Shown in pieces: positions 8,290 through 63,606 of a stretch of DNA of 64,000 bases. Below the pieces are notes generated by a model, which ran no database searches, had not been told where the DNA came from, and was given only the letters and a program-made list of their open reading frames with translations. A program made the position numbers and the translations under genes. This DNA is from Escherichia coli (GTDB taxonomy: Bacteria; Pseudomonadota; Gammaproteobacteria; Enterobacterales; Enterobacteriaceae), in assembly GCF_024223415.1 (NCBI RefSeq), contig NZ_CP100502.1. The stretch is one strand, 5' to 3'. Positions within the stretch are counted from its first letter, which is position 1. Each line of letters opens with the position of its first letter.

Positions 8290-8410
8290 TTTTGTACAGT
8301 CTATGCCTCGGGCATCCAAGCAGCAAGCGCGTTACGCCGTGGGTCGATGTTTGATGTTATGGAGCAGCAACGATGTTACGCAGCAGGGCAGTCGCCCTAA
8401 AACAAAGTTA
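8290..8410. other. attI1 recombination site region
   Basis: Sequence ending CCCTAAAACAAAGTTA at the cassette boundary upstream of dfrA1. Confidence 0.6.
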
Positions 8411-8427
8411 ACCTCTGAGGAAGAATT

Positions 8428-8901
8428 GTGAAACTATCACTAATGGTAGCTATATCGAAGAATGGAGTTATCGGGAATGGCCCTGATATTCCATGGAGTG
8501 CCAAAGGTGAACAGCTCCTGTTTAAAGCTATTACCTATAACCAATGGCTGTTGGTTGGACGCAAGACTTTTGAATCAATGGGAGCATTACCCAACCGAAA
8601 GTATGCGGTCGTAACACGTTCAAGTTTTACATCTGACAATGAGAACGTAGTGATCTTTCCATCAATTAAAGATGCTTTAACCAACCTAAAGAAAATAACG
8701 GATCATGTCATTGTTTCAGGTGGTGGGGAGATATACAAAAGCCTGATCGATCAAGTAGATACACTACATATATCTACAATAGACATCGAGCCGGAAGGTG
8801 ATGTTTACTTTCCTGAAATCCCCAGCAATTTTAGGCCAGTTTTTACCCAAGACTTCGCCTCTAACATAAATTATAGTTACCAAATCTGGCAAAAGGGTTA
8901 A
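8428..8901 (+). CDS. dfrA1: Trimethoprim-resistant dihydrofolate reductase DfrA1 (gene cassette)
   Basis: 157-aa ORF with GTG start, [52 protein letters not shown]. Confidence 0.9.
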
Positions 8902-8993
8902 CAAGTGGCAGCAACGGATTCGCAAACCTGTCACGCCTTTTGTACCAAAAGCCGCGCCAGGTTTGCGATCCGCTGTGCCAGGCGTTAAACATC
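8902..8993. other. attC (59-be) of the dfrA1 cassette
   Basis: Between dfrA1 stop and aadA1 start, ending GTTAAAC core. Confidence 0.5.
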
Positions 8994-9297
8994 ATGAGGG
9001 AAGCGGTGATCGCCGAAGTATCGACTCAACTATCAGAGGTAGTTGGCGTCATCGAGCGCCATCTCGAACCGACGTTGCTGGCCGTACATTTGTACGGCTC
9101 CGCAGTGGATGGCGGCCTGAAGCCACACAGTGATATTGATTTGCTGGTTACGGTGACCGTAAGGCTTGATGAAACAACGCGGCGAGCTTTGATCAACGAC
9201 CTTTTGGAAACTTCGGCTTCCCCTGGAGAGAGCGAGATTCTCCGCGCTGTAGAAGTCACCATTGTTGTGCACGACGACATCATTCCGTGGCGTTATC
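8994..9297 (+). pseudogene. aadA1: aadA1 streptomycin/spectinomycin adenylyltransferase, 3'-truncated (about 101 of 263 codons) by Tn2 IRR
   Basis: Begins MREAVIAEVSTQLSEVVGVIERHLEPTLLAVHLYGSAVDGGLKPHSDIDLL; reading frame runs straight into the Tn2 inverted repeat at 9298. Confidence 0.85.
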
Positions 9298-10487: not shown

Positions 10488-11208
<721 letters not shown>

Positions 11209-37830: not shown

Positions 37831-38184
37831 TATTCTAATAACTGAATCCGCACACAGTCAAATGTCATTGTTGTGACTAAAAAACGCTCAATTCTCTGAG
37901 TGTGTGGCTGTATGCCTGCTGTGGGCTGCTGTGTCCAGCTTATCCACAGCATTTTGTGCACGGTTCTGTGGACAAAATACCTGGTTACCCAGGCCGTGCC
38001 GGCACGTTAACCGGGCTGCATCCGATGCAAGTGTGTCGCTGTCGCCGGCCTCCTCACCCGGTCACGTTTCGTCGTTCCTCCTCCACGCGCTGCGGCTTCG
38101 GGGCCGCACCTGCATTCGTATGCGGTCGCCCGGTAACAGGTGCGGCACGGCCTGATGGAGGCCGCATGTGAGAGGAGAATTCCC

Positions 38185-39111
38185 ATGCCAAACTGGTGCT
38201 CGAATCGTATGTATTTTTCTGGTGAACCGGCACAGATCGCTGAGATTAAACGACTGGCCAGCGGTGCAGTTACACCGCTTTATCGCCGCGCCACAAATGA
38301 AGGTATTCAGCTGTTTCTGGCCGGAAGTGCCGGACTTCTGCAGATCACTGAAAATATCCGCTCTGAACAGTGCCCCGGAGTGACGGCTGCCGGACGTGGT
38401 GCTGTATCGACGGAAAATATCGCGTTCACCCGCTGGCTGACACACCTGCAGAACGGTGTACTGCTGGATGAGCAAAACTGCCTGATGCTGCATGAACTCT
38501 GGCTGCAGAGCGGTACTGGACAGCGTCGCTGGGAAGGATTACCGGATGATGTCAGGGAAACCATCACTGTGCATTTCACCGCAAAAAGAGGTGACTGGTG
38601 TGACATCTGGGGTAGCGAGGATGTATCGGTGTGGTGGAACCGTCTGTGTGACAACGTAGTGCCGGAAAAAACCATGCCGTTTGACCTGCTGACGGTTCTG
38701 CCGACCCGCCTGGATGTTGAAGTGAATGGCTTTAATGGTGGTGTTCTGAACGGTGTTCCTTCTGCATATCACTGGTATACAGAACGGTATGGCGTGAAGT
38801 GGCCTTGTGGGTATGACCTGAATATCAGTAGTCAGGGAGACAACTGCATTCAGGTGGATTTCGACACGCCGTGGTGTCAGCCGGAAAGCGACGTTGTTGC
38901 AGCATTAAGCCGCCGTTTCGGCTGCACGCTGGAGCACTGGTACGCCGAACAGGGCTGCAATTTCTGTGGCTGGCAGTTGTATGAGCGCGGAGAGCTCGTT
39001 GATGTGCTCTGGGGGGAACTGGAATGGTCTTCCCCGACAGATGACGATGAGCTGCCGGAAGTCACCGGACCTGCGTGGATAGTCGACAAGGTGGCGCATT
39101 ACGGGGGATGA
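38185..39111 (+). CDS. Hypothetical leading-region protein
   Basis: 308 aa from MPNWCSNRMYF with SD GAGGAG. Confidence 0.55.
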   Translation: MPNWCSNRMYFSGEPAQIAEIKRLASGAVTPLYRRATNEGIQLFLAGSAGLLQITENIRSEQCPGVTAAGRGAVSTENIAFTRWLTHLQNGVLLDEQNCLMLHELWLQSGTGQRRWEGLPDDVRETITVHFTAKRGDWCDIWGSEDVSVWWNRLCDNVVPEKTMPFDLLTVLPTRLDVEVNGFNGGVLNGVPSAYHWYTERYGVKWPCGYDLNISSQGDNCIQVDFDTPWCQPESDVVAALSRRFGCTLEHWYAEQGCNFCGWQLYERGELVDVLWGELEWSSPTDDDELPEVTGPAWIVDKVAHYGG

Positions 39112-39495
39112 AGTATGACGGAGACGGGCGGGCAACCGCCCGTTTCTTTTCCGACAAAGGATGTCGCCGTGCTCCTCTGTTTACTGCGCCGGCTGATGCG
39201 GCGCGGCATAAACGCTGCCTGTGGTCAGTGTCCCGCGTCCGGCGGGCACGGGACGGGCGCTTTTACCGCTCCCGGCTGGCGTCGGTGACAGTGTACGCCA
39301 GCCTGTCGCCCTTTTCTGATGAACGCCCTTCAAGCCGCTTTCGCGGCATATTCTCGCCGTCAAAAAGACGACGGCTGCGATATTCCACGGTCGGCCTGAC
39401 CCGTTACCGGACGCGGTGAACAGCCCACAGGCAGCGGGGAACGGGCACCACAGGGGTGCCCTCCCGGTGCCCTCTGAGAAAGAAGGAGTGTTGTT

Positions 39496-40179
39496 ATGTC
39501 CCGTTTTGTCCTCGGTAACTGCATTGATGTTATGGCGCGTATTCCTGATAACGGCATTGATTTCATACTGACTGACCCGCCATACCTCGTCGGTTTTCGT
39601 GACCGACAGGGGCGTACCATCGCCGGCGATAAAACCGATGAATGGCTGCAACCAGCCTGTAATGAAATGTATCGCGTACTCAAAAAAGATGCGCTGATGG
39701 TCAGCTTCTACGGCTGGAACCGCGTCGATCGCTTTATGGCCGCCTGGAAAAATGCGGGATTCAGTGTGGTTGGGCACCTGGTCTTCACCAAAAACTACAC
39801 ATCGAAGGCCGCATATGTGGGTTATCGCCACGAATGCGCCTACGTTCTGGCAAAAGGCCGTCCGGCGCTGCCTCAGAAGCCATTACCCGACGTGCTGGGC
39901 TGGAAATATTCAGGCAATCGTCATCACCCGACGGAAAAGCCTGTTACCAGCCTGCAACCACTGATTGAGAGCTTCACACATCCGAACGCGATTGTGCTGG
40001 ACCCGTTTGCAGGCAGCGGCTCAACCTGCGTGGCTGCCCTTCAGTCCGGACGCCGGTATATCGGTATCGAGCTGCTTGAGCAGTATCACCGTGCCGGACA
40101 GCAACGTCTGGCTGCCGTACAGCGGGCCATGCAGCAGGGGGCCGCAAATGATGACTGGTTTATGCCGGAGGCTGCGTAA
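39496..40179 (+). CDS. Orphan DNA methyltransferase (N6-adenine/N4-cytosine type, DPPY motif)
   Basis: 227-aa ORF; DPPY motif and FAGSGST AdoMet-binding motif. Confidence 0.85.
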   Translation: MSRFVLGNCIDVMARIPDNGIDFILTDPPYLVGFRDRQGRTIAGDKTDEWLQPACNEMYRVLKKDALMVSFYGWNRVDRFMAAWKNAGFSVVGHLVFTKNYTSKAAYVGYRHECAYVLAKGRPALPQKPLPDVLGWKYSGNRHHPTEKPVTSLQPLIESFTHPNAIVLDPFAGSGSTCVAALQSGRRYIGIELLEQYHRAGQQRLAAVQRAMQQGAANDDWFMPEAA

Positions 40180-41668: not shown

Positions 41669-41726
41669 TGACACTGGCGGGGTAAATCCCCGCCTTTTTC
41701 CTGCCGGTCCCCGGACAGAGCACAAA

Positions 41727-42058
41727 GGAAGTCGCCGCCGGCTCCGCTTTACCCGGCCATGCGGGGCATGGCCTTGTGGGTTTTCAGTTATGTGGCCACC
41801 GTGTCGTGTGCGGGCTGTGCCGTGCCTCCATCTTAGCCGGGCTGGCAGGGATGCAAGGGTACGCTTCGCCGCTGCGGTCACCCGGTCCCTCCTTCCCGTC
41901 TGCCGTGATTTTCCGGTCGTTCACCCGCTCAGATTTCGCGGTCTCACCCTCCAACTCCCGCCAGCCGTGTGCGTCAGGCTGCGGCTTCCCTTGCGCCCTG
42001 TGCATCCCCGCCTTATCGCCCGGCTTTTATGGAGGCACGGCACCGCCCGGTGTCGCGG
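41727..42058. repeat. Leading-region GC-rich repeat, family B copy 1 (Frpo/ssi-like single-strand promoter candidate)
   Basis: About 330 bp nearly identical to 48711-49040; directly upstream of klcA/ardB-like gene. Confidence 0.7.
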
Positions 42059-42085
42059 AATATGTGAACAACGGAGGAATACATC

Positions 42086-42511
42086 ATGCAATATGCGAAA
42101 CCTGTCACTCTGAATGTTGAAGAGTGCGACCGTCTGTTTTTTCTGCCTTACCTGTTTGGCCAGGATTTTCTGTATGTCGAAGCGTCTGTGTACGCGCTGG
42201 CGAAAAAAATGATGCCGGAATATGAAGGCGGATTCTGGCACTTCATCCGCCTGCCGGACGGTGGCGGCTACATGATGCCGGATGGCGACCGTTTCCACAT
42301 AGTGAACGGTGCAAACTGGTTTGACCGTACCGTGAGTGCTGATGCCTGCGGCATCATTCTGACTTCCCTTGTGATTAACCGCCAGTTGTGGCTGTACCAC
42401 GACAGCGGTGATGCAGGACTGACCCAGCTTTACCGGATGCGCGATGCGCAGTTGTGGCGTCACATCGAATTTCACCCTGAATGCAACGCGATTTACGCGG
42501 CTCTGGACTGA
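42086..42511 (+). CDS. klcA: Antirestriction protein, KlcA/ArdB family
   Basis: 141 aa; [17 protein letters not shown] and C-terminal NAIYAALD motifs recalled from KlcA. Confidence 0.75.
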
Positions 42512-42557
42512 TTAACGGACGGGGCGGCAATGCCGCCCCTGTAAAGGAGACGAGAAA

Positions 42558-42980
42558 ATGTACTGTACTGTTAAAGAAATTATCCGCGAAGTGCTGGATA
42601 CAGACGTGCCGGACAGTGAATGCGTTTTTGCCGTGGTGCTGACCCGTGGGGATGTGCGTCACATAGCCCAGGACTGGAACCTGTCAGACGATGAGCTGGA
42701 AACCGTCATGCAGCGGCTGGACGATGCCTTTGAGCATGGTGCGGATGTCAGCGTTGTTCACGACGTTGTTCGTGAACTGATGGAAGAAAAGCGCGCCAGC
42801 CGTCATGTGACAGTCCCGGCGATGATGCTGGAAAAAGTGATGGCGCTGGCAGGCAGTGAAATGAAGCGCCTGTATGCCGTCGGAAGTGAGAACGGGGGCG
42901 ACGGTGACGCATTCGTCAGGGAGGAACGCGAAGCAATGGACGTTGTGTTACAGGCGCTGGACGGGGAGACGATGTCATGA
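42558..42980 (+). CDS. Hypothetical acidic leading-region protein
   Basis: 140-aa ORF with SD AAGGAGA. Confidence 0.5.
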   Translation: MYCTVKEIIREVLDTDVPDSECVFAVVLTRGDVRHIAQDWNLSDDELETVMQRLDDAFEHGADVSVVHDVVRELMEEKRASRHVTVPAMMLEKVMALAGSEMKRLYAVGSENGGDGDAFVREEREAMDVVLQALDGETMS

Positions 42981-43168
42981 ATATCAGCACAGAAACCCGC
43001 GAAATTCTGCGTAATTACAGGGCCGTGATTAATGCGCGGCGTCGTGAAATGGGGCAGAAACCGCTCACCACCGCGCAGATTGTTGATGAAATCTGCGATT
43101 TTGTGGCGAATCAGCAGGCGGTTTTCCTGGGCGGTCACTACATCTTACAGGGCAGCAGAAACAGGTGA
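42977..43168 (+). CDS. Hypothetical small protein
   Basis: 63-aa ORF overlapping upstream stop. Confidence 0.4.
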   Translation: MNISTETREILRNYRAVINARRREMGQKPLTTAQIVDEICDFVANQQAVFLGGHYILQGSRNR

Positions 43169-43404
43169 TACAGGGGCAGGCGGTGGAGGCCGCCTGTCAG
43201 CCCGCGCGAAAACCCCTGGCAGGCTGACGCCTGCCGGAAGGGAAGCGGGCCACGCTGGCGCGTCGCCCGTTACCCTTCCCGTCTGTGATGTGTCTGACTC
43301 AGGAGTGTTTCTTTCTTATGTTATGGAACTGTTCCTGATGTTGTTGTTCCTTTATCTGCTGCTCTGATTCTGACTACTGCAGTGTTGTTCTGTCTGCCGG
43401 GCGC

Positions 43405-43920
43405 ACCTTCGGCTCCCGGCTGCCTGGCGGCATCCGGTCGTCAGGCCCGACTCCGACAGGCAGCTGCTGGCGCACCCGCCAGTCTCCGCCGAACCCGCTG
43501 GCGCGGTTTCGGGCTGTCGCTACGGTCCGATGCGTGAAAACCCGGGCTTGCAGCGACCGTTCCGGTCGCGCCGCCTCTGTCGCGCCGTGACCTGCGCTCC
43601 CTGCACACCTGACGGTGTGTGAGGAAACTGCGCCTGATGGCGCAGCAGTCCTCCCTCCTGCCGCCACCTCTGCGGCCTGTTTCCCGCTGTGGACTTTCCG
43701 GGGGGCAGACGTAACCCCCTCCCGTTCCATCTGTCCAGGGTGAGATGCACCGGCCACAAAATTTTTAGCCATGAACCCGGCAAAAAATTTTGCGTCCGCC
43801 CCCGGACAGCTGTCCCGTGAGGCGGTAAACGGGCCCCCATCGGAAAGGTCCACTGCGGGGAGAAACCCCTGTGAAGTGGACGGCAGGAGGAGCTTTCGCT
43901 CCTCTGAAGGGGCACATGAA
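43405..43920. repeat. Leading-region GC-rich repeat, family A copy 1 (Frpo/ssi-like)
   Basis: About 515 bp highly similar to 49739-50255 and, in part, 52815-53150; directly upstream of ssb. Confidence 0.7.
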
Positions 43921-43973
43921 CGTCCCGTCTCCGGTATCCGGTTTATCTCACATCTTTCAGTCAGGAGGTTCTT

Positions 43974-44501
43974 ATGAGTGCACGTGGTATCAACAAGGTC
44001 ATCCTCGTCGGGCGTCTGGGCAATGATCCGGAGGTCCGTTACATCCCCAACGGTGGCGCAGTGGCAAACCTGCAGGTGGCCACGTCAGAAAGCTGGCGCG
44101 ACAAACAGACGGGGGAGATGCGGGAGCAGACGGAATGGCACCGTGTTGTGCTGTTCGGCAAGCTCGCGGAAGTGGCAGGTGAATATCTGCGCAAGGGCGC
44201 GCAGGTCTACATCGAGGGGCAACTCCGTACCCGTAGCTGGGACGACAACGGCATCACCCGCTACATCACTGAAATTCTTGTTAAGACCACGGGCACCATG
44301 CAGATGCTGGGGAGTGCACCACAGCAGAACGCTCAGGCGCAACCGAAGCCTCAGCAGAATGGGCAGCCACAGAGTGCTGACGCGACGAAAAAAGGTGGCG
44401 CGAAAACGAAAGGCCGTGGACGTAAGGCCGCGCAGCCCGAGCCTCAGCCGCAAACGCCGGAGGGGGAGGATTACGGGTTTTCAGACGACATCCCGTTCTG
44501 A
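43974..44501 (+). CDS. ssb: Plasmid single-stranded DNA-binding protein
   Basis: 175 aa; OB-fold N-terminus, Gln/Pro-rich linker, acidic tail DDIPF. Confidence 0.95.
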
Positions 44502-44516
44502 TCGGGCTGACTGTGA

Positions 44517-44792
<276 letters not shown>

Positions 44793-44850
44793 GAGAGGTG
44801 CCGGACGCGCGAACGTCCGGCAGGACATAAGCAATTATAAGGGGATGATT

Positions 44851-46809
44851 ATGCCTGTAACGAAGTGTGAACCAGAAACCACCCGCAAAGCAAGCCGTAA
44901 ATCTGCAAAAACGCAGGAAACTGCCCTGTCTGCCCTGCTGGCGCAGACGGAGGAAGTGAGCGTGCCGCTGGCCTCACTGATTAAATCACCGCTGAATGTG
45001 CGCACGGTGCCGTATTCTGTGGAGTCCGTCAGCGAACTGGCTGGGTCCATTAAGGGCGTTGGCCTGTTGCAGAATCTGGTCGTGCATACCCTGCCTGGTG
45101 ACCGTTACGGTGTCGCCGCAGGTGGTCGCCGACTGGCTGCACTCAACATGCTGGCAGAGCGCAACATCCTTCCGGCTGACTGGCCTGTCCGTGTGAAGGT
45201 CATCCCGCAGGAACTGGCGACTGCCGCATCGATGACCGAGAACGGTCATCGTCGGGATATGCACCCTGCCGAACAGATTGCCGGATTCCGCGCATTGGCG
45301 CAGGAAGGCAAAACACCTGCACAGACTGGCGACCTGCTGGGCTATTCACCCCGCCACGTTCAGCGAATGCTGAAACTGGCAGACCTTGCGCCTGTCATCC
45401 TCGATGCGCTGGCAGAGGACCGCATCACCACCGAGCACTGTCAGGCGCTGGCGCTGGAGAGCGACACCGCGCGTCAGGTGCAGGTGTTTGAAGCGGCCTG
45501 CCAGTCAGGATGGGGCGGTAAACCGGATGTGCGGGTTATCCGCAACCTGATTACGGAAAGTGAAGTGGCAGTGAAGGACAACACTAAATTCCGCTTTGTG
45601 GGGGCTGATGCCTTCTCGCCAGACGAATTGCGCACCGATTTGTTCAGCGATGACGGGGACGGTTATGTCGACCGCGTGGCGCTCGATGCCGCCCTGCTGG
45701 AAAAACTCCAGGCTGTTGCAGAGTTCCTTCGGGAAGCCGAAGGCTGGGAATGGTGCGCCGGGCGCATGGAGCCTGTCGGTGAGTGCCGTGAGGATGCCGG
45801 AACATACCGCTGTCTGCCGGAGCCGGAAGCGGTGCTGACGGAGGCGGAAGACGAACGCCTGAACGAACTGATGACGCGTTACGACGCGCTGGAAAACCAG
45901 TGTGAGGAATCCGACCTGCTGGAAGCAGAAATGAAGCTGATGCGCTGCATGGCGAAGGTCAGAGCGTGGACGCCGGAGATACGTGCCGGAAGCGGTGTGG
46001 TGGTGTCCTGGCGTTATGGCAACGTATGTGTCCAGCGTGGTGTGCAGTTGCGCAGTGAAGATGACGCGACTGACGACGCTGACCGCACGGAACAGGTGCA
46101 GGAGAAAGCGTCAGTGGAGGAAATCAGCCTGCCGTTGCTGACGAAAATGTCCTCAGAGCGCACGCTGGCAGTCCAGGCGGCACTCATGCAGCAGCCGGAC
46201 AAATCTCTGGCACTGCTGGCATGGACGCTCTGCCTGAATGTGTTTGGCAGCGGGGCGTACAGTAAACCAGCACAAATCAGCCTGGAATGTGAACATTATT
46301 CGCTGACCAGCGATGCGCCATCGGGGAAGGAAGGTGCCGCATTCATGGCGCTGATGGCAGAAAAATCCCGTCTTGCAGCCCTGCTGCCGGAGGGATGGTC
46401 ACGGGACATGACGACATTCCTGTCCCTCAGTCAGGAGGTGCTGTTATCCCTGCTCAGTTTCTGCACCGCATGCAGCCTTAACGGTGTCCAGACCCGTGAG
46501 TGTGGTCACACGTCACGCAGTCCGCTTGACTCGCTGGAAAGCGCTATCGGATTCCACATGCGCGACTGGTGGCAGCCGACAAAAGCAAACTTCTTCGGAC
46601 ACCTGAAAAAGCCGCAGATTATCGCAGCCCTGAATGAGGCCGGACTGTCCGGTGCCGCACGGGACGCGGAGAAGATGAAGAAAGGTGATGCGGCTGAACA
46701 TGCAGAGCACCATATGAAAGACAACCGCTGGGTTCCAGGCTGGATGTGTGCACCACATCCACAGACAGATGCCACTGAACGCACCGATAACCTGGCTGAT
46801 GCCGCCTGA
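44851..46809 (+). CDS. ParB-like nuclease-domain protein of the leading region
   Basis: 652 aa from MPVTKCEP; N-terminal ParB/Srx-like region. Confidence 0.75.
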   Translation: MPVTKCEPETTRKASRKSAKTQETALSALLAQTEEVSVPLASLIKSPLNVRTVPYSVESVSELAGSIKGVGLLQNLVVHTLPGDRYGVAAGGRRLAALNMLAERNILPADWPVRVKVIPQELATAASMTENGHRRDMHPAEQIAGFRALAQEGKTPAQTGDLLGYSPRHVQRMLKLADLAPVILDALAEDRITTEHCQALALESDTARQVQVFEAACQSGWGGKPDVRVIRNLITESEVAVKDNTKFRFVGADAFSPDELRTDLFSDDGDGYVDRVALDAALLEKLQAVAEFLREAEGWEWCAGRMEPVGECREDAGTYRCLPEPEAVLTEAEDERLNELMTRYDALENQCEESDLLEAEMKLMRCMAKVRAWTPEIRAGSGVVVSWRYGNVCVQRGVQLRSEDDATDDADRTEQVQEKASVEEISLPLLTKMSSERTLAVQAALMQQPDKSLALLAWTLCLNVFGSGAYSKPAQISLECEHYSLTSDAPSGKEGAAFMALMAEKSRLAALLPEGWSRDMTTFLSLSQEVLLSLLSFCTACSLNGVQTRECGHTSRSPLDSLESAIGFHMRDWWQPTKANFFGHLKKPQIIAALNEAGLSGAARDAEKMKKGDAAEHAEHHMKDNRWVPGWMCAPHPQTDATERTDNLADAA

Positions 46810-46863
46810 TGAACAACCACACCGCCCCGCCGGAGACGGGGCGGCAGCAAGGGAGATACCGTG

Positions 46864-47298
46864 ATGAAAACTGAACTGACCCTGAATGCCCTGCAGTCCA
46901 TGAACGCACAGGAATATGAAGATATCCGTGCTGCGGGAAGCGATATGCGCCGTAATCTCACTCACGAGGTGATGCGTGAAGTGGACGCACCGGCTAACTG
47001 GATGATGAATGGCGAGTATGGCAGTGAGTTCGGGGGCTTTTTCCCCGTCCAGGTTCGTTTCACGCCAGCCCACGAACGTTTCCACCTGGCATTATGTTCG
47101 CCGGGAGACGTCTCTCAGCTCTGGATGCTGGTTCTGGTGAATTGTGGTGGACAGCCTTTCGCCGTCGTTCAGGTGCAACATATCTTCACGCCTGTCGCTA
47201 TCAGTCACACGCTGGCGCTTGCCGCGACACTTGATGCGCAGGGGTACAGTGTTAACGACATCATCCATATCCTGATGGCAGAAGGAGGTCAGGCATGA
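46864..47298 (+). CDS. psiB: Plasmid SOS inhibition protein PsiB
   Basis: 144 aa [32 protein letters not shown]. Confidence 0.9.
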
Positions 47299-48014
47299 GC
47301 GCACGTTCACGGGCACTGATCCCCCTCAGCGCAGAGCAACAGGCCGCCATGCAGGCTGTGGCTGTCACCGAACAACGTCGTCGTCAGGGACGCACACTTT
47401 CAGCATGGCCTTATGCCAGCGCTTTCTTTCGCTGCCTGAATGGCAGTCGCCGGATTTCGCTGACCGATCTCCGCTTTTTTGCTCCTGCGCTGACGAAGGA
47501 GGAATTTCATGGCAACCGTCTCCTGTGGCTGGCTGCCGTGGATAAACTGATTGAAAGTTTTGGTGAAGTCTGTGTTCTTCCCCTGCCATCCGATGCGGGG
47601 CATCGTCTGTTCCCGTCCGTTCCTTTTCGTGAAGGTGAGCGGCGTCGTCAGAAAACCACGCTGACAGAGCAGAAATACAGCCGCCAGCGGGAACGTGAGG
47701 CAGAACGACGGGAACTGGAATACCAGACATGTTTTGCTCAGGCGCAGATTGACCTTGCGTTTCATACTCCCGCCACGGTCGGAAGCTGGTTGTCCCGCTG
47801 GTCTGGTGTTGTTGAGGAGCATGATCTGGAAACGATTTTCTGGGGGTGGTGCGGGCGTTTTCCATCACTGTCATCATTTGACCGGTTTTTCTGGCAGGAG
47901 GAACCACTCTGGCGGCTGATTTTTGAAGCCGGTGAGGCCGGTCGTGGTGCACCGGTACAGGTACGTGCACTTGAGCAGTGGATGATCCCGAACAAGCTGG
48001 AGAACGCAATATGA
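47295..48014 (+). CDS. psiA: PsiA
   Basis: 239-aa ORF overlapping psiB stop. Confidence 0.85.
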
Positions 48015-48607
48015 TGAAATCAGACGAACAATATCAGGTTCCCGTGTGGATGCGACCTCTGTTGCCGTTGCTCTGCAATACCGGTGGTAATGATCCGGAG
48101 GAACTGCTGAATGATACAGAAACCACCGCCAGTGCGAATATTGTCCGTTATGTACTGATAGTTGCAGTGCGGTCGCAGATTGATCTGCTGCAGCTACTGT
48201 ACAGGAAAGGACTGTTGCGCACAGAGATACCAGGTGGCTTTTCACCGGAAGAAGCGCAGGAACTCCTGGATAATCTGGTGCGCAGCCATATCAGCAAGGC
48301 GTTGTCGGGTGAGCGAATGGCAGCCCGTGACAGAAATGCCGATCTGACCTGGATTCGCCAGCAACTGGTCGATGCCGCCTGGTTTGTCCGTGCCACACTG
48401 GAAGCGCATGGGATGGGCGTCGGAAATGAGAGTCCCTCTGCTCCGCCGGAGACAATGCCGGACATACAGACACGGGAACTGGTTATGTTGATCAAGCGAC
48501 TGGCATCATCGCTGAAAGCGGTGAAACCCGACAGTAGCGTGGTGCGTGAAGCGCAGGACTGGCTGTGCGACAGAAAACTTGTGGATATCACAGATATTCT
48601 CCGGTGA
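48011..48607 (+). CDS. Hypothetical leading-region protein
   Basis: 198-aa ORF overlapping psiA stop. Confidence 0.5.
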   Translation: MMKSDEQYQVPVWMRPLLPLLCNTGGNDPEELLNDTETTASANIVRYVLIVAVRSQIDLLQLLYRKGLLRTEIPGGFSPEEAQELLDNLVRSHISKALSGERMAARDRNADLTWIRQQLVDAAWFVRATLEAHGMGVGNESPSAPPETMPDIQTRELVMLIKRLASSLKAVKPDSSVVREAQDWLCDRKLVDITDILR

Positions 48608-48710
48608 ACCAGACATGTATATTTTACGCAGGGACACGCCGATCATGATCGTTTCATATCAGGGGTGGTCTGGAGGTCATGCGGCGTGTCCTCTGCACTC
48701 GCCGGAATAA

Positions 48711-49040
48711 GGAAGTCGCCGGCGGCTCCGCTTTTACCCGGCCATGCGGGGCATGGCCTTGTGGGTTTTCAGCTCTGTGGCCTCAGCGTCGTGTGCGGGC
48801 TGTGCCGTGCCTCCATCTTAGCCGGGCTGGCAGGGATGCAAGGGTACGCTTCGCCGCTGCGGTCACCCGGTCCCTCCTTCCCGTCTGCCGTGATTTTCCG
48901 GTCGTTCACCCGCTCAGATTTCGCGGTCTCACCCTCCAACTCCCGCCAGCCGTGTGCGTCAGGCTGCGGCTTCCCTTGCGCCCTGTGCATCCCCGCCTTA
49001 TCGCCCGGCTTTTATGGAGGCACGGCACCGCCCGGTGTCG
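48711..49040. repeat. Leading-region repeat, family B copy 2 (Frpo/ssi-like)
   Basis: Nearly identical to 41727-42058; directly upstream of ardA. Confidence 0.7.
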
Positions 49041-49069
49041 CAGAACATGTGACTATGGAGGATTCGGGA

Positions 49070-49570
49070 ATGTCTGTTGTTGCACCTGCTGTATACGTTG
49101 GAACCTGGCACAAATACAACTGTGGAAGCATCGCTGGCCGCTGGTTTGACCTGGCCACGTTTGATGATGAACGCGACTTTTTCGCCGCCTGCCGCTCTCT
49201 TCACCAGGATGAAGCCGATCCTGAACTGATGTTTCAGGATTATGAGGGATTCCCGGGGAATATGGCCTCAGAATGCCATATCAACTGGGCCTATGTTGAA
49301 GGCTTCCGCCAGGCGCGGGATGAAGGCTGCGAAGAGGCTTATCGTCTCTGGGTGGATGATACCGGTGAGACGGATTTTGACACCTTCCGCGATGCCTGGT
49401 GGGGCGAGGCTGACAGTGAGGAGGCTTTTGCGGTTGAGTTCGCCAGTGATACCGGCCTGCTGGCTGACGTGCCGGAGACGGTGGCGCTCTATTTTGACTA
49501 TGAGGCGTATGCGCGGGATTTATTCCTGGACTCCTTCACCTTTATTGACGGTCATGTGTTCCGTCGGTGA
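49070..49570 (+). CDS. ardA: Antirestriction protein ArdA (DNA mimic)
   Basis: 166-aa highly acidic protein [28 protein letters not shown]. Confidence 0.9.
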
Positions 49571-49738
49571 TTTACTCCCCCGCTCCGGCGGGGGTATGGC
49601 CTGCCAGGCCGCCGGAAAACCCTGGCAGGCTTACGCCTGCCTGAAATGCAGGAGGGCCGCGCCTGCGGCGCTGCCCTTCCTGCCCGTCATGGTGTGAGGC
49701 ATTTTTCTGTTATGTCGTTTCTGTTGTTCTGATTTCCG

Positions 49739-50255
49739 GAGGCGGGGACACCTTCGGCTCCCGGCTGCCTGGCGGCATCCGGTCGTCAGGCCCGACTCCG
49801 ACAGGCAGCTGCTGGCGCACCCGCCAGTCTCCGCCGAACCCGCTGGCGCGGTTTCGGGCTGCCGCTACGGTCCGATGTCTGAAAAACCAGGCTTGCAGCG
49901 ACCGTTCCGGTCGCGCCGCCCCTGTCGCGCCGGAAACGGCGCTCCCTGCACACCTTACGGTGTGTAAGGCAACTGCGCCTGATGGCGCAGTCAACCCTTC
50001 CGCCGCCACCCCTGCGGCCTGTTTCCCGCTGTGGACTTTCCGGGGGCTGGAGTAACCACATCCCGTTTCAGCAGTCCAGGGGAAGATATACCGTCCACAA
50101 AATTTTTAGCCATAAACCCGGCAAAAAATTTTGCGTCCGCCCCCGGACAGCTGCCCCGTGACGTGGTGACGGACGCCCCATCGGAAAGGTCCACTGCGGG
50201 GAGAAACCCCGAAGAAGTGGACGGCAGAAGGGGCTTTCGCCCCTCCGGGGAGCAA
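49739..50255. repeat. Leading-region repeat, family A copy 2 (Frpo/ssi-like)
   Basis: Highly similar to 43405-43920. Confidence 0.7.
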
Positions 50256-50298
50256 CCGGTCGGCCCGGCGACCTGATTCAGCAGAAGGAGATGTTTTC

Positions 50299-50733
50299 AT
50301 GACAGTCAGCAGCACGATTTCCGTTTTTTGCCGCGACGGGGTGTTCCGTACCGTTTACTGCCACCTGCACGGGGAGCCGACCTGGAACGGTCGCATCCTG
50401 CATACTCACTATGCCACCGGTCAGCAGGCCGAAGCCCTGGTTGAACACGGTGATATCCGTTGCCTCGGTCCCCGTTGTGACAAACCCGCCGGGCATACGC
50501 TTCAGAACCCGGTGGACGGTGTGACGGCTTATTACGGACGTGACAGTGGTTTCCGGATGGACAGTGAGGCGCGTGAGTACCGTTCTTTCAGGGAGGCTAT
50601 TGCCACTGAAAGCACTGAAGAGGTGCGCTTCCATTATGTGTTCATCGACGGCTACTGGAAGGTGATGTACCGCACGCCGGAAGGCTGGAAGATGAAAGCG
50701 CTCGCGCTGGCACTGCGTCGCTGTCCGAAATGA
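50299..50733 (+). CDS. Hypothetical protein directly downstream of a family A repeat
   Basis: 144-aa ORF with SD AGGAGA. Confidence 0.55.
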   Translation: MTVSSTISVFCRDGVFRTVYCHLHGEPTWNGRILHTHYATGQQAEALVEHGDIRCLGPRCDKPAGHTLQNPVDGVTAYYGRDSGFRMDSEAREYRSFREAIATESTEEVRFHYVFIDGYWKVMYRTPEGWKMKALALALRRCPK

Positions 50734-50824
50734 AAAAAAGGCAGGGCGATAAACCCTGCCTCTCTCCGCCGTTACTTCCCCGCCAGGAAGAGCGGCAGTC
50801 ATCAACAACATAAGGAGTAATATT

Positions 50825-51091
50825 GTGAGACCATCAATTATCTTCGCAACCGCCGAGTATGTAAAGCGTCTGCGTGAAGAGTGCCTGCGGGAGAATAAAC
50901 CCCTGCACCGCCATACCCGCTTCAGACGTCAGGAGCTGGCACAGGATGAGATTAACCCGGACGTCCTGGCGATGAGCGGCCATATCGCCAGACGCTGCAG
51001 TGAGCAGAAGCGGGTGCGTATCCCCGCTATGAAAGTCAGCGAATGGGGCCACCTGCTCCGCGCGCTTGAAATTGAGCGGGTCTGCCACTGA
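50825..51091 (+). CDS. Hypothetical small basic protein
   Basis: 88-aa ORF, GTG start, SD AAGGAG. Confidence 0.45.
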   Translation: MRPSIIFATAEYVKRLREECLRENKPLHRHTRFRRQELAQDEINPDVLAMSGHIARRCSEQKRVRIPAMKVSEWGHLLRALEIERVCH

Positions 51092-51155
51092 TTAACCCTT
51101 GCCGTCTGCCTGTGCAGGCGGCAGGATACGTTCAGACATCTCACCAGGAGGAACC

Positions 51156-52097
51156 GTGAGTAAGAAGAAAAACACCACAACGCCCACGCCGCATGATGCC
51201 GCGTTCCGGTCGTTCCTGGCGAATCCCGACGTCGCCAGAGATTTTCTGGAACTGCATCTTCCTGCGGAGTACCGGCAGTTGTGCGACCTGTCCACGCTGA
51301 AGCTGGAACCCGCCACCTTTGTTGAGCCGGACCTGCATCAGTACGCCAGCGATATCCTCTGGAGCGTGAAAACCACCGGGGGTGAAGATGGTTATGTTTA
51401 TACGCTCATCGAGCACCAGAGCACCGAAAATCTGTACATGCCTTTTCGCATGTTACGCTACAGTGTGGCGGCGATGCAGAGACATCTGGAGCAGCACAAA
51501 ACGTTGCCACTGGTCATTCCGGTGCTGTTCTATCACGGTGAGCGCAGCCCGTACCCGTACAGCATGAACTGGCTGGACTGTTTTGAGAATCCGGCGCTTG
51601 CGGCTAAAATATACACAAAGCCGTTTCCGCTGGTTGATATCACTGTCGTTGATGACAATGAAATCATGAACCATCGCCGGATGGCCGCACTGACGCTGCT
51701 GATGAAGCATATCCGTCAGCGGGATATGCTGATGTGTCTGGACAACCTGGTCAGAGCACTGCAGGACATCCAGGATGAAGAGCAGATTACAGTTCTTTTC
51801 AACTATCTGCTTAATGGCAGCGAACATGTAACGGTTGAATTTTTGCAGACGCTGGCGCAGCGACTGCCGCAGCACGAGGACAGCATTATGACACTGGCAG
51901 AACGTCTTAAGCAGGAAGGTATCCAGCAAGGTATCCAGCAGGGTATCCAGCAGGGTATCCAGCAGGGAGTTCAGCAGGGGGCGCTTCAAAAAGCACGGGA
52001 AATCGCCCGGGAGCTCCGGAACGCGGGAATGCCGGCAGCACAAATCTGTCAGCTGACCGGACTTTCTGAAGCTGAACTGAAGAACATCACTCACTGA
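51156..52097 (+). CDS. Rpn-family (YhgA-like) recombination-promoting nuclease
   Basis: 313 aa from GTG; PD-(D/E)xK-type N-terminal region, C-terminal QQGIQQG repeat. Confidence 0.75.
   Translation: MSKKKNTTTPTPHDAAFRSFLANPDVARDFLELHLPAEYRQLCDLSTLKLEPATFVEPDLHQYASDILWSVKTTGGEDGYVYTLIEHQSTENLYMPFRMLRYSVAAMQRHLEQHKTLPLVIPVLFYHGERSPYPYSMNWLDCFENPALAAKIYTKPFPLVDITVVDDNEIMNHRRMAALTLLMKHIRQRDMLMCLDNLVRALQDIQDEEQITVLFNYLLNGSEHVTVEFLQTLAQRLPQHEDSIMTLAERLKQEGIQQGIQQGIQQGIQQGVQQGALQKAREIARELRNAGMPAAQICQLTGLSEAELKNITH
51918..51977 (+). repeat. Five tandem 12-bp repeats (GGTATCCAGCAG-like) encoding (QQGI)n within the Rpn gene
   Basis: Read directly. Confidence 0.85.
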
Positions 52098-52158
52098 TGA
52101 GAGCCAAAAGGCCCGGCAAAATGCCGGGCCTTTTGCCAGCAGGAGCAGAGAAAACAGT

Positions 52159-52329
52159 ATGACGATTGCAGAACGTCTTATACAGAAAGGTTTTGAAAAA
52201 GGTGCTCTTGAAGTGGCGCGGGAAATAGCCTGCCGGCTTCGGGATATGGGCTGGACGCCGGAACGGATTCAGGAGGCCACGGGACTTTCCGGTGAAGAAC
52301 TGAAAAAACTGTTTCCTGATGAGCAGTAG
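52159..52329 (+). CDS. Small ORF resembling the C-terminal domain of the adjacent Rpn protein (RpnS-like)
   Basis: 56-aa MTIAERLIQKGFEKGALEVAREIACRLRDMGWTPERIQEATGLSGEELKKLFPDEQ; parallels Rpn C-terminus; SD AGGAGCAGAG. Confidence 0.5.
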   Translation: MTIAERLIQKGFEKGALEVAREIACRLRDMGWTPERIQEATGLSGEELKKLFPDEQ

Positions 52330-52359
52330 CCTGGCATTCTGCCAGGCTGTGAACCACGC

Positions 52360-52611
52360 TCACACATCCTCTGCCGTTTCCCCCAGTTCATTTTCCAGAC
52401 GCCTGATGATATCTGCCTTGCGCATCCCCTGCATGTGAGGCAGCAGGTCACGGACTGAAAGTGCCTGGGTGGTCCTCCAGACGGTGACATCCACCTGTTC
52501 CGCATTTTCCCAGGCGTGCCATGTTCTCTGTGTCACGCCAAATTCTCTGGCCGCTTTTTCGCGTGACCAGAGCATGCTTTTTCGCCAGATTCGCAGTTCC
52601 CAGCCGGTCAT
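52360..52611 (-). CDS. Small helix-turn-helix regulator (XRE-like)
   Basis: 83-aa ORF with HTH-like segment. Confidence 0.5.
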   Translation of the reverse strand: MTGWELRIWRKSMLWSREKAAREFGVTQRTWHAWENAEQVDVTVWRTTQALSVRDLLPHMQGMRKADIIRRLENELGETAEDV

Positions 52612-52814
52612 AAAACACCTTTGAAAAAGTGAAAAAACTTCACTTTATTTTATCACCATAACCACCAAATCAGCGCGAAAAATAAGTGTGAAAAAGTGAA
52701 GGAATTTCACTTTTTTTGATTGTAGGTGTCGTGCTGTTTTCTCTGTTTTCACCTGTGCGGGAGTGGTGTGCCAGTGACCACCACATGCCATTGTTGCGCC
52801 GTCGTTTTTCTTCA

Positions 52815-53150
52815 GTCGCGCCGGATGCGGCGCTCCCTGCACACCTTACGGTGTGTAAGGCCACTGCGCCTGATGGCGCAGCTGTCTCTGCCTGTCTGCC
52901 GCCGCACTGCGGCCTGTTCTCCGCAGATGGACTTTCCGGGGGTACATACACGACCACATCCCGTTTCAGTCGTCCAGGGGAGAGATGTACCAGCCACAAA
53001 ACTTTTTGCCGCAGGCGTCAAAAACTTTTGCGTCTGCCCCCGGACAACTGCCCCGTGACGTGGTGAGCGTCCCCCGTCGGAAAGGTCCACTGCGGGGAAA
53101 TCCCCGAAGACCCGGACGGCAGAAGGAGCTTCGCTCCTCCGGGAAATGAC
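52815..53150. repeat. Leading-region repeat, family A copy 3 (partial)
   Basis: Aligns with the distal two-thirds of the family A repeats. Confidence 0.65.
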
Positions 53151-53187: not shown

Positions 53188-54039
53188 GTGATGAATCAGA
53201 CTTTACCCACTGCTGACCTGAATACTGCCGGCACGACAGATGTTATTCCGTCTGTGGCCATCGACCGCATCATCGCGCAGCGTAACGAAGGTATTGCACT
53301 GTTCATGCAGGCGATGGAATGCCTGGCGACAGCGCGCAGGATTCTGCTTGATGCGTCAGGTGATATTTTTCTTTACGGTTTTGAAGACTGCGTGACCGAC
53401 TCCGTTCGGTGCATGGATAAACCGGAAGAAGCGAAAAGGAATATCACCCGTCTTGCCGACCGGAAAATCTGGGACCGCCTGATGACGGATACGGGGATGT
53501 ACACCTTCATGAGTTCATGTCAGCGTGATGAGTGGAACAGCCAGCTGATGAGCGACACCTGTCCTGAAATCACCCTGGACAATGTACTGGCAACTTTTCG
53601 CCATCTGAATGCCAGTAAGATGCAGACATTTGAACAGGGACTGATTGATGTCTACCGGAAATTGTCATGGGATTACAGAACCAATAATCCCTGCCGTCTG
53701 GGCAAGAGAATCATTATTGAAAACCTGCTGTACCGCTGGAGTAACGGGCGTGTTACGCTGGACTGCAGCGGACGGGAGGCACTGGATGACCTGGTACGTC
53801 CGTTTTATCTGCTGGAGGGGCGCAACGTTCCTGACTTCCGGAGCAGCATCGGGGCGCAGTACGGTGAATTTATCGGGAACGGCGACAATGTCGGTAAGCT
53901 GTTAGAAGGGGAATATTTTACGGTGCGTGGCTACCAGAAAGGGACCGTACACATTGTCTTTAAGCGTCCTGACCTTGTTGAAAAACTGAATGATATTATT
54001 GCACGGCATTATCCTGGTTCATTGCCGCCACGAGTCTGA
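53188..54039 (+). CDS. Hypothetical protein directly downstream of the partial family A repeat
   Basis: 283-aa ORF with SD GAGGAG. Confidence 0.55.
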   Translation: MMNQTLPTADLNTAGTTDVIPSVAIDRIIAQRNEGIALFMQAMECLATARRILLDASGDIFLYGFEDCVTDSVRCMDKPEEAKRNITRLADRKIWDRLMTDTGMYTFMSSCQRDEWNSQLMSDTCPEITLDNVLATFRHLNASKMQTFEQGLIDVYRKLSWDYRTNNPCRLGKRIIIENLLYRWSNGRVTLDCSGREALDDLVRPFYLLEGRNVPDFRSSIGAQYGEFIGNGDNVGKLLEGEYFTVRGYQKGTVHIVFKRPDLVEKLNDIIARHYPGSLPPRV

Positions 54040-54559: not shown

Positions 54560-54692
54560 ATGCACAAAAATAACAGGCTATAATGGCCTGAAAAACGGGA
54601 CAGGATGTGCAATTGTAATACCGTCACACGCGACGCTATTACAATTGCCATCTGGTCAGGGCTTCGCCCCGACACCCCGTAAGGAGCCTGAA
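54560..54692. other. Putative origin of transfer (oriT)
   Basis: Immediately upstream of nikA; inverted repeat GCAATTGTAATAC ... TATTACAATTGC around 54609-54658. Confidence 0.5.
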
Positions 54693-62353: not shown

Positions 62354-62644
62354 GACAAAGTCTCCATTTCTGGAATTTAAATCAAACGGAAAGGTTAAAA
62401 ATTTATTTGCAGGCGATAAGAGCTAACCAGAGGAATTAGCCGTGCGATAAAAGGATTGTTGCAGATACGAAAGTCGTTAGAATAGCTGCGGGCGCTTGAG
62501 GCTGTATGCCGAAAGCGTTTTGTGGACGGTATACAGCAGAAAGCCCCTGGAGATTTTTTTATCAATCAACCAAGGGCTCTACTGTAATGCCTAGACAACA
62601 TTATAGTAGCCCGATAACCGCCGTAAGGCAATGGAGGGGCTATG

Positions 62645-62797
62645 ATGCCACAGCGAACGTTTTTAATGATGTTAATCGTCATCTGTGTGACGATTCTGTG
62701 TTTTGTCTGGATGGTGAGGGATTCGCTTTGCGGACTCCGGCTCCAGCAGGGAAACACAGTGCTTGTGGCAACGTTAGCCTACGAAGTTAAACGTTAA
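62645..62797 (+). CDS. pndA: Hok-family toxin PndA (type I toxin-antitoxin); overlapping pndC-like frame and antisense RNA expected upstream
   Basis: 50-aa MPQRTFLMMLIVICVTILCFVWMVRDSLCGLRLQQGNTVLVATLAYEVKR; below the size cutoff of the ORF track. Confidence 0.85.
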   Translation: MPQRTFLMMLIVICVTILCFVWMVRDSLCGLRLQQGNTVLVATLAYEVKR

Positions 62798-63120: not shown

Positions 63121-63606
63121 CGGATTTTCTCTCTGTATTTATGGGTAGTTATCGAACTGAATGTGCCAGTTTTTTCAGGAGACGGCAAAGTTGAGATGAT
63201 TGGTTCTGATTCAGAGCATGAGTTTCCTCGGTGTGACGGGCATGTCGGGCGGATTTTGAGAAACAACAGATGTAAAAAAACCGACTGGTGAGGTCGGTTT
63301 TTTTACTGTTCCGTTACAGAGTGGGTGGCCCTGACCGGAGGAAATCTCTTTTCAACTAACGTTCTTATAATAGCGAGCTGTTCATTTGATAGCAACCATC
63401 CTTATAATCCGCAGGTTAGCTCTGTCTGGCGACACTTCTGCCGTGATATCCATCGGGACTATGGATGCAAGATTTTAAGTCCTGGCTGAACAAACAGGTG
63501 GTGCTGTGTTCAGTGCTCTGGCAGGAGGAAGTCTCTTTTCAACTAACACTGAAAGTGCCGTTGTGACAGGCAATGTAAGAGTAAGCAACGGTGATTTCCT
63601 CCAGTG

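Follow-up and report, generated by a model that had tools for sequence, protein, structure and literature searches.

Repeated hairpins in the leading region of an IncI1-type plasmid very probably act as single-stranded DNA promoters

The window analysed here is a stretch of 64,000 nucleotides of Escherichia coli contig NZ_CP100502.1 (assembly GCF_024223415.1), and our subject is the five copies of two GC-rich repeat families, A and B, that lie between its positions 41,727 and 53,150. A 13.5-kb query over the repeats matched more than 5000 enterobacterial plasmid records, with IncI1-type plasmids (IncI-gamma/K1, MOBP, MPF_I) as the top matches at 99.7% identity, and we assign the window to a plasmid of IncI1 type that is closely related to ColIb-P9 and pESBL. 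Gene names are taken from a RefSeq record 99.7% identical to the window. On the plus strand the genes run in the order DUF1281, DNA methylase, KlcA/ArdB-like; ssb, ParB-like, psiB, psiA; then ardA, followed by several small open reading frames (ORFs), the genes for an Rpn nuclease and a DUF4942 protein, nikA and nikB. Such an order is classical for an IncI1 leading region, and the leading regions of pESBL-EA11 and F are laid out in the same way. The repeats, the first gene after each of them and the origin of transfer (oriT) are listed below; the names ssi, class 1, class 2 and ssp2 are those of elements in ColIb-P9, pESBL and F to which the repeats are compared further on.

41727-42062, minus strand: B1, putative class 2/ssp2-type single-stranded DNA (ssDNA) promoter hairpin, 5' of the klcA/ardB-like gene (repeat, fold, identity to pESBL and F)
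42086-42511, plus strand: antirestriction gene (KlcA/ArdB-like), first gene after B1 (ORF; "antirestriction protein" in the 99.7%-identical RefSeq record)
43398-43576, no strand assigned: 180-bp extension 5' of ssi3, outside the published ssi unit and shared solely with 49743-49921
43577-43907, minus strand: A1, ssi3 (class 1, Frpo homologue), putative promoter of the ssb-psiB-psiA operon (identity, fold, covariation)
43974-44501, plus strand: ssb (ORF and RefSeq annotation)
48711-49046, minus strand: B2, second putative class 2/ssp2-type hairpin, 5' of ardA (repeat; about 97% identity to the element upstream of ardA in pESBL)
49070-49570, plus strand: ardA antirestriction gene (ORF and RefSeq annotation)
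49743-49921, no strand assigned: second copy of the 180-bp extension, 5' of ssi2 (repeat comparison)
49922-50247, minus strand: A2, ssi2 (class 1; ColIb-P9 identity)
50299-50733, plus strand: 144-amino-acid ORF (orf144), first gene after ssi2 (ORF and RefSeq annotation)
52813-53141, minus strand: A3, ssi1 (class 1), complete unit (ColIb-P9 identity)
53191-54039, plus strand: DUF4942 gene, first gene after ssi1 (ORF and RefSeq annotation)
54574-54665, minus strand: oriT core, with nick motif CACATCCTG followed across the nick by T; nick between 54601 and 54600, nikA/nikB immediately to the right

Both families had been proposed from a sequence-only reading, and the extents given there hold to within about 10 bp. 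Its placing of the copies upstream of a klcA/ardB-like gene, ssb, ardA and two further ORFs is borne out by plus-strand starts at 42086, 43974, 49070, 50299 and 53191. Between the two family B copies, an ungapped stretch of 300 nt is 98% identical (41748-42047 against 48733-49032), and alignment carries their similarity out to about 41727-42062 and 48711-49046. The first two family A copies are 85-94% identical (43398-43904 against 49743-50245), and the third begins at 52812. For repeats of 300-500 nt at such identity, chance is excluded by far. Family A, described in the sequence-only reading as a repeat of about 515 bp, is indeed repeated and is not a single unit: it comprises an ssi element of about 330 nt, present three times, and an upstream extension of about 180 bp, present in the first two copies only. 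The gap of 20-45 bp that had been given between every copy and its start codon does not hold throughout: it is about 24 bp in family B and about 40-66 bp in family A.

The nick motif defines the direction of transfer. It has one exact match in the 64 kb, on the minus strand at 54601-54609, in inverted-repeat-rich DNA upstream of nikA. The consensus of RP4/R64-type nick sites we take to be YATCCTG/Y, the stroke marking the nick. In the ColIb-P9 leading region (AJ238399) ssi1 is at 1459 and ssi2 at 4353, exactly their distances from 54600 in the window, and the ssi references are given in minus-strand orientation. Since the nick motif is on the minus strand and the AJ238399 coordinates count from 54600, it is the minus strand that is transferred. 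This strand is the template for all leading-region genes and enters the recipient toward lower coordinates. The class 1 elements sit 1.5-11 kb from the nick, and the genes downstream of them are all on the plus strand.

Comparison with the ssi reference sequences (AJ238399, as listed in Samuel et al. 2024, supplementary file 4) places family A among known elements. A3 (52813-53141) is 100% identical to ssi1 (AJ238399:1459-1787) over all 329 nt, and this copy, which had been taken for a partial one, is a whole unit. A2 (49922-50247) is 99.1% identical to ssi2 (AJ238399:4353-4678) over 326 nt, and A1 (43577-43907) is 99.7% identical to ssi3 (AJ238399:11381-11711) over 331 nt. The match of the core to ssiD of F is weaker, at 74-76%. 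Judged by these identities, the family A copies are ssi1, ssi2 and ssi3 of ColIb-P9, the IncI1 homologues of F Frpo (class 1, or ssp1); for this family the comparison with Frpo/ssi promoters drawn in the sequence-only reading is literally correct. The ssi1-3 elements of ColIb-P9 were put forward as ssDNA promoters in 1999 and form class 1 in pESBL (PMC12672017). For Frpo1 and Frpo2 of F, transcription from ssDNA has been demonstrated in vitro and in vivo, and their deletion abolishes early expression (PMC9849209).

Family B agrees with a class described more recently. Its two copies in the window show about 95-97% identity to their counterparts in pESBL and about 96-98% to the single one in F, with 7-18 differences in approximately 328 alignment columns. 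B1 is about 95-98% identical to the elements upstream of klcA in pESBL and F, and B2 differs from the element upstream of ardA in pESBL at 11 of 328 positions; the candidate element Frpo' 4 (Samuel et al. 2024) is 82% identical to family B. The alignments identify family B as the class 2 ssDNA promoter of pESBL and the ssp2 of F. The paralogous B copies within one plasmid show 7 and 10 differences and the window-pESBL orthologues 11-16, which suggests gene conversion between the copies within a plasmid.

What these orthologues do has been reported for pESBL in Nucleic Acids Research (NAR, December 2025; PMC12672017). Six pESBL operons were induced up to approximately 500-fold within 15 min of transfer, with a large hairpin before each. 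Three of these hairpins are ssi1-3, and the mutually similar hairpins 5' of klcA and ardA were named as a new class 2. The evidence included RNA-seq and the mapping of starts by 5' rapid amplification of cDNA ends (5' RACE); the starts agreed with the predicted hairpin promoters, and the induction was transient and was lengthened by delaying the conversion of single-stranded to double-stranded DNA. The proposal in the sequence-only reading that family B too consists of ssDNA promoters is in agreement with these data on induction in transconjugants and on start sites. In F, the stalled 3' end of the complementary strand maps to the end of the ssp2 stem; the stall is relieved by UvrD, the delay raises expression of downstream ssDNA promoters, and ssp1 transcripts act as primers (bioRxiv 10.64898/2026.01.09.698686, January 2026).

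The folding of the repeats is specific to the transferred strand. Folded as DNA, the minus strand of B1 reaches -91 kcal/mol (z -5.8) and that of the ssi3 (A1) core -113 kcal/mol (z -10). The copies form imperfect hairpins of about 230 nt on this strand, and in all five the minus strand is more stable than the plus strand by 12-16 kcal/mol (13 for B1). We aligned nine class 1 sequences (the three of the window, pESBL, two from F, pO157, a Klebsiella IncF plasmid and an ssi1 variant), and their consensus structure has 85 pairs, 31 of which show compensatory double changes. Paired cells amount to 94.4%, against 45-54% when the partners are slid by 1-3 columns, and the 31 pairs with double changes compare with 4-10 in the slid versions; neither value was attained in any of 500 shuffles. 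On the minus strand, G·T cells outnumber A·C cells by 79 to 12, which argues that selection for folding acts on the minus strand. Family B is too conserved for strong covariation; seven sequences, among them the 82% homologue and an IncK2 variant, nonetheless retain its hairpin, and ten pairs have double changes.

Within the family B hairpins, the non-template arm carries a mimic of a sigma-70 promoter at the same place in both copies:

41830-41856, minus strand: B1 mimic, -35 TTGCAT at 41856-41851, 15-nt spacer, -10 TAAGAT at 41835-41830
48815-48841, minus strand: B2 mimic, -35 TTGCAT at 48841-48836, -10 TAAGAT at 48820-48815

In the hairpin form, the -35 is fully paired and the centre of the -10 (AAG, including A-11) falls within a 3-nt internal mismatch; a mismatch inside the -10 is present in every family B variant examined. 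In the duplex form, the same place reads GTGCAT-19-TTTTAT. The template arm is an inexact complement, and the promoter boxes are degraded in the duplex: the -35 lacks its first T, the -10 lacks the critical A-11, and the spacer has the wrong length. From the geometry of the hairpin, transcription is predicted to start near plus-strand positions 42036-42039 for B1 and 49021-49024 for B2.

The assignment of boxes in family A is less definite. Ten members from five lineages share a layout in which an AT-rich tip is followed by an unpaired bulge of 8-10 nt on the non-template arm, then by a paired T(G/T/A)GACA-like hexamer and, 17-22 nt on, by a small conserved internal loop. Candidate elements from Salmonella have TTGGAT or TTGCGC at the position of the hexamer. 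This layout would be compatible with an UP element followed by a -35 and then by a pre-melted -10, with the hexamers as candidate boxes, and we infer that TGGACA is the likeliest -35, without a firm -10. A scan of the non-template arm for the TTGACA/TATAAT consensus gave no consistent pair. Two other candidates were rejected: TTGTGG beside the AT-rich tip lacks a -10 at a distance of 16-18 nt, and F has not conserved GGGACA-18-CAAAAT, a pair on the 5' arm in the opposite orientation. The sequence-only reading had suggested aligning the copies, folding the transferred strand and searching the fold for a -35/-10 mimic. Family B yielded what had been anticipated throughout, and family A did so in part.

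It might be supposed that the repeats are ordinary double-stranded promoter or operator cassettes, through which a plasmid repressor would co-control the leading-region genes. IncN plasmids (pKM101/R46) would offer a parallel in their conserved upstream (CUP) repeats, which lie 5' of ardA/ardB-type leading genes and are described as duplex promoter or regulatory repeats rather than long hairpins. The resemblance to the window would lie in a repeated element before several anti-restriction leading genes. The copies are indeed repeated and upstream of genes, and a gene for a helix-turn-helix (HTH) regulator lies nearby at 52360-52611. Nevertheless, a scan of the plus strand upstream of all five genes for duplex sigma-70 consensus promoters predicted none, in any copy, and the family B duplex has lost two key bases of its boxes and holds them 19 nt apart. 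The excess of G·T over A·C cells and the difference in folding energy between the strands would be meaningless for duplex DNA, and the published induction (PMC12672017) is transient and prolonged when conversion to duplex is delayed. We therefore regard duplex cassettes as very unlikely.

A second alternative holds that the hairpins are sites of priming or pausing for replication only and that the genes are expressed from elsewhere. The ssi elements were originally discovered as sites of single-strand initiation, and the RNA made from Frpo primes DNA synthesis. In vivo, local conversion is accelerated by ssp1 transcripts, and ssp2 stalls synthesis independently of transcription (bioRxiv 10.64898/2026.01.09.698686). 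Against an exclusive role of this kind, the 5' RACE starts of the six pESBL operons fall at the predicted hairpin promoters (PMC12672017), and an Frpo in front of an anti-CRISPR gene restores transfer only if it lies in the leading region and only if it has the T-strand orientation. The two roles are moreover compatible, as priming and roadblock are already part of the explanation we favour, and we consider replication alone highly improbable as an account of the repeats. The least probable alternative, to which we give almost no weight, is that they are selfish or neutral palindromes, of the type of miniature inverted-repeat transposable elements (MITE) or repetitive extragenic palindromes (REP), or relics of segmental duplication. 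The inverted repeats are indeed long and occur in several copies, and the paralogous B copies look homogenised within the plasmid, but at least 5000 plasmid records have them at 90-100% conservation, compensatory changes keep the stem between IncI and IncF lineages, and the function of their orthologues has been shown by experiment (PMC12672017; PMC9849209).

We conclude that the five repeats are, with high probability, hairpin-forming ssDNA promoters of the IncI1 leading region. Our own analysis contributes the identity to reference elements, the transferred strand, the strand-specific hairpins with their covariation and the family B mimic together with its loss in the duplex. Published work on near-identical elements contributes ssDNA transcription, start sites, early induction and priming. 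Several points weigh against this conclusion. The case for function draws on published work with plasmids that are orthologous and not identical. The spacer of 15 nt in the family B mimic is shorter than the sigma-70 optimum, though the template arm has 19 nt between the matching hexamers. The -10 of family A could not be assigned consistently between lineages, and the spacing of TA-containing hexamers varies among them. The covariation sample is small, its nine sequences representing essentially two clades. Finally, an inverted repeat covaries on either strand, so that the choice of strand depends on the asymmetry between G·T and A·C and on the difference in energy.

The following mechanism would account for these observations. 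During conjugation the minus strand would enter the recipient 5'-first from the nick at 54600. While single-stranded, each element would fold into an imperfect stem-loop of about 230 nt, in which one arm would act as non-template strand and the other as template of a sigma-70 promoter. Host RNA polymerase would start within the stem and transcribe out past the base of the hairpin into the downstream gene, that is, into klcA/ardB, the ssb-psiB-psiA operon, ardA, orf144 or the DUF4942 gene. Functions in anti-restriction, SOS inhibition and ssDNA binding could thus be made before the complementary strand exists. Synthesis of that strand would turn the hairpin into ordinary duplex, and expression would switch off because the sequence opposite the template arm makes no usable promoter. 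Transcripts from family A may also prime complementary-strand synthesis. By analogy with F, we infer that both family B copies of the window plasmid act as roadblocks, and two ssp2 copies in series would then form a two-stage block to complementary-strand synthesis in IncI1.

Two further hairpins lie farther from the nick. A homology-independent fold scan of the whole window recovered A1, A2, A3, B2, oriT and hok/sok; B1 and a hairpin that we call H1 were missed through the phase of the scanning window, and a peak at 39201-39440 revealed another, H2.

37989-38154, minus strand: H1, extra hairpin upstream of the DUF1281 gene (38209), candidate ssDNA promoter with a TTGCAT-15-TAACGT core
39150-39445, minus strand: H2, large conserved hairpin directly 5' of the ssDNA methylase gene (39496), from the fold scan

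H1 is intergenic and folds less strongly. It shares with B1 and B2, and with these only, a 38-nt core, TTGCAT-N6-CAGCCCGGYTAANNT-N3-GGCACGGC; the core matches at three places in the 64 kb, each on the transferred (minus) strand, where chance would give none. Local alignment of B1 with H1 gives a z of 9.7; neither of them showed resemblance to H2 or to family A when compared. The core of H1 is exact in F and pESBL, and H1 occurs in 4818 plasmid records. With an exact 38-nt core in common, class 2 and H1 would be relatives and not unrelated classes, be H1 class 3 or not. H2 is 97% identical in pESBL and F and present in at least 5000 records; the segment that contains it (39120-39500) folds at -108 kcal/mol (z -7.7). 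It lies within an annotated hypothetical ORF (39108-39419), whose frame is broken in F by a 1-nt indel. A check of H2 for promoter boxes and strand bias found no recognisable -35 or -10 and no strand asymmetry. H2 could be a second structural barrier, or an element acting at the RNA level, before the ssDNA methylase gene.

Since PMC12672017 counts six promoters, one of H1 and H2 should be the published class 3. The position of class 3 (ssp3) was found neither in the text examined nor by literature search. We lean towards H1, as it is truly intergenic and has boxes. As only one of the two can be class 3, the other would be an unreported element. It is possible, though on balance doubtful, that the leading region holds further single-strand elements in addition to the six that have been reported from pESBL.

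The 180-bp extension (43398-43576 and 49743-49921) flanks ssi3 and ssi2 and is absent beside ssi1. At least 5000 plasmid records contain it at 95-99% identity, among them IncF plasmids in which the hairpins next to it reach only about 70%, and it folds weakly on both strands (z about -3). Between IncI and IncF it is better conserved than the hairpins themselves, and so may be a functional module. In public records it is often annotated as a hypothetical protein. The sequence-only reading had dismissed the ORFs within the repeats as spurious, and this is probably right: their extents vary from copy to copy, a scan of ten ORFs (nine within the repeats and the annotated 39108-39419) against NCBIfam matched no family, and the "hypothetical proteins" of public records over the same DNA differ in identity and strand. 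Examples of such annotations (L001, 14306-14587; L004, which is pESBL, 8468-8839; L003, 9808-10164) extend across the extension and the ssi3/Frpo2 hairpin and are probably annotation artefacts on non-coding DNA.

Rfam covariance models at the gathering threshold gave no match within 41.7-53.2 kb. Rfam matches elsewhere in the window were the attI/aminoglycoside leader (class 1 integron), the sok antitoxin RNA and AgrB. The positions listed for Rfam matches or fold peaks there are 8361-8432, 8801-9120, 62490-62647 and 63272-63359, with 8801-9120 a peak of the fold scan near the integron. Just 5' of B1, at 41676-41694 on the plus strand, a GGCGGGG...CCCCGCC stem followed by TTTTT is a possible terminator; this intrinsic terminator-like stem would mark off the klcA unit from the methylase operon before it. 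Two AT-rich copies (52612-52653 and 52679-52720) of a short stem-loop (AAAGTGAA...TTCACTTT) lie between ssi1 and the gene for the HTH regulator, in a region that is a peak in the fold scan. These stem-loops may be operator or terminator sites.

Both families are already described, family A since 1999 and family B since December 2025, and the value of the present work lies in confirmation, with no new kind of element: a reading of sequence alone recovered the ssi family of 1999 and the class of 2025. To this our analysis adds strand-specific folding, compensatory changes and a reason why the family B promoter works only as a hairpin. The remaining novelty is confined to the extra hairpin, the core common to class 2 and H1, and the 180-bp extension, and is mainly of interest to specialists in conjugation. 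More broadly, such elements time genes for anti-restriction, SOS inhibition and ssDNA binding to the first minutes in a new host, and are relevant to the passage of resistance plasmids past host defences.

Compared with known systems, the window plasmid stands closest to ColIb-P9 (Bates et al. 1999) in its class 1 elements. The order of the ssi elements from oriT is the same, and ssi1 and ssi2 are at equal distances from the nick; ssi3, however, is at 11381 in ColIb-P9 and at 10693 here, the window being approximately 688 bp shorter between ssi2 and ssi3, and the ssi unit published for ColIb-P9 leaves out the 180-bp extension that adjoins ssi2 and ssi3 in the window. Frpo1 and Frpo2 of F (ssiD; ssp1a/ssp1b) are homologous hairpins of like architecture and position, one of them before ssb. 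Their arms are only about 65-75% identical to those of family A, their small 3' accessory hairpins differ in sequence, and F has two class 1 copies where the window plasmid has three. Among the candidates of Samuel et al. 2024 (supplementary file 4), the predicted elements Frpo' 4, Frpo* 1 and Frpo* 3 come from the metagenome of an insect gut, belong to an unrelated conjugative element and have divergent arms, and Frpo* 1 and Frpo* 3 have a TTG...CCCGGCTA...GGCACGGC core in common with family B. Closest to family B are class 2 of pESBL and ssp2 of F. The F ssp2 is the only one for which roadblock activity has been demonstrated, and there is one copy in F and two in IncI1 plasmids; these elements occupy the same places as family B, 5' of klcA/ardB and of ardA, and form the same hairpin with a -35/-10 mimic.

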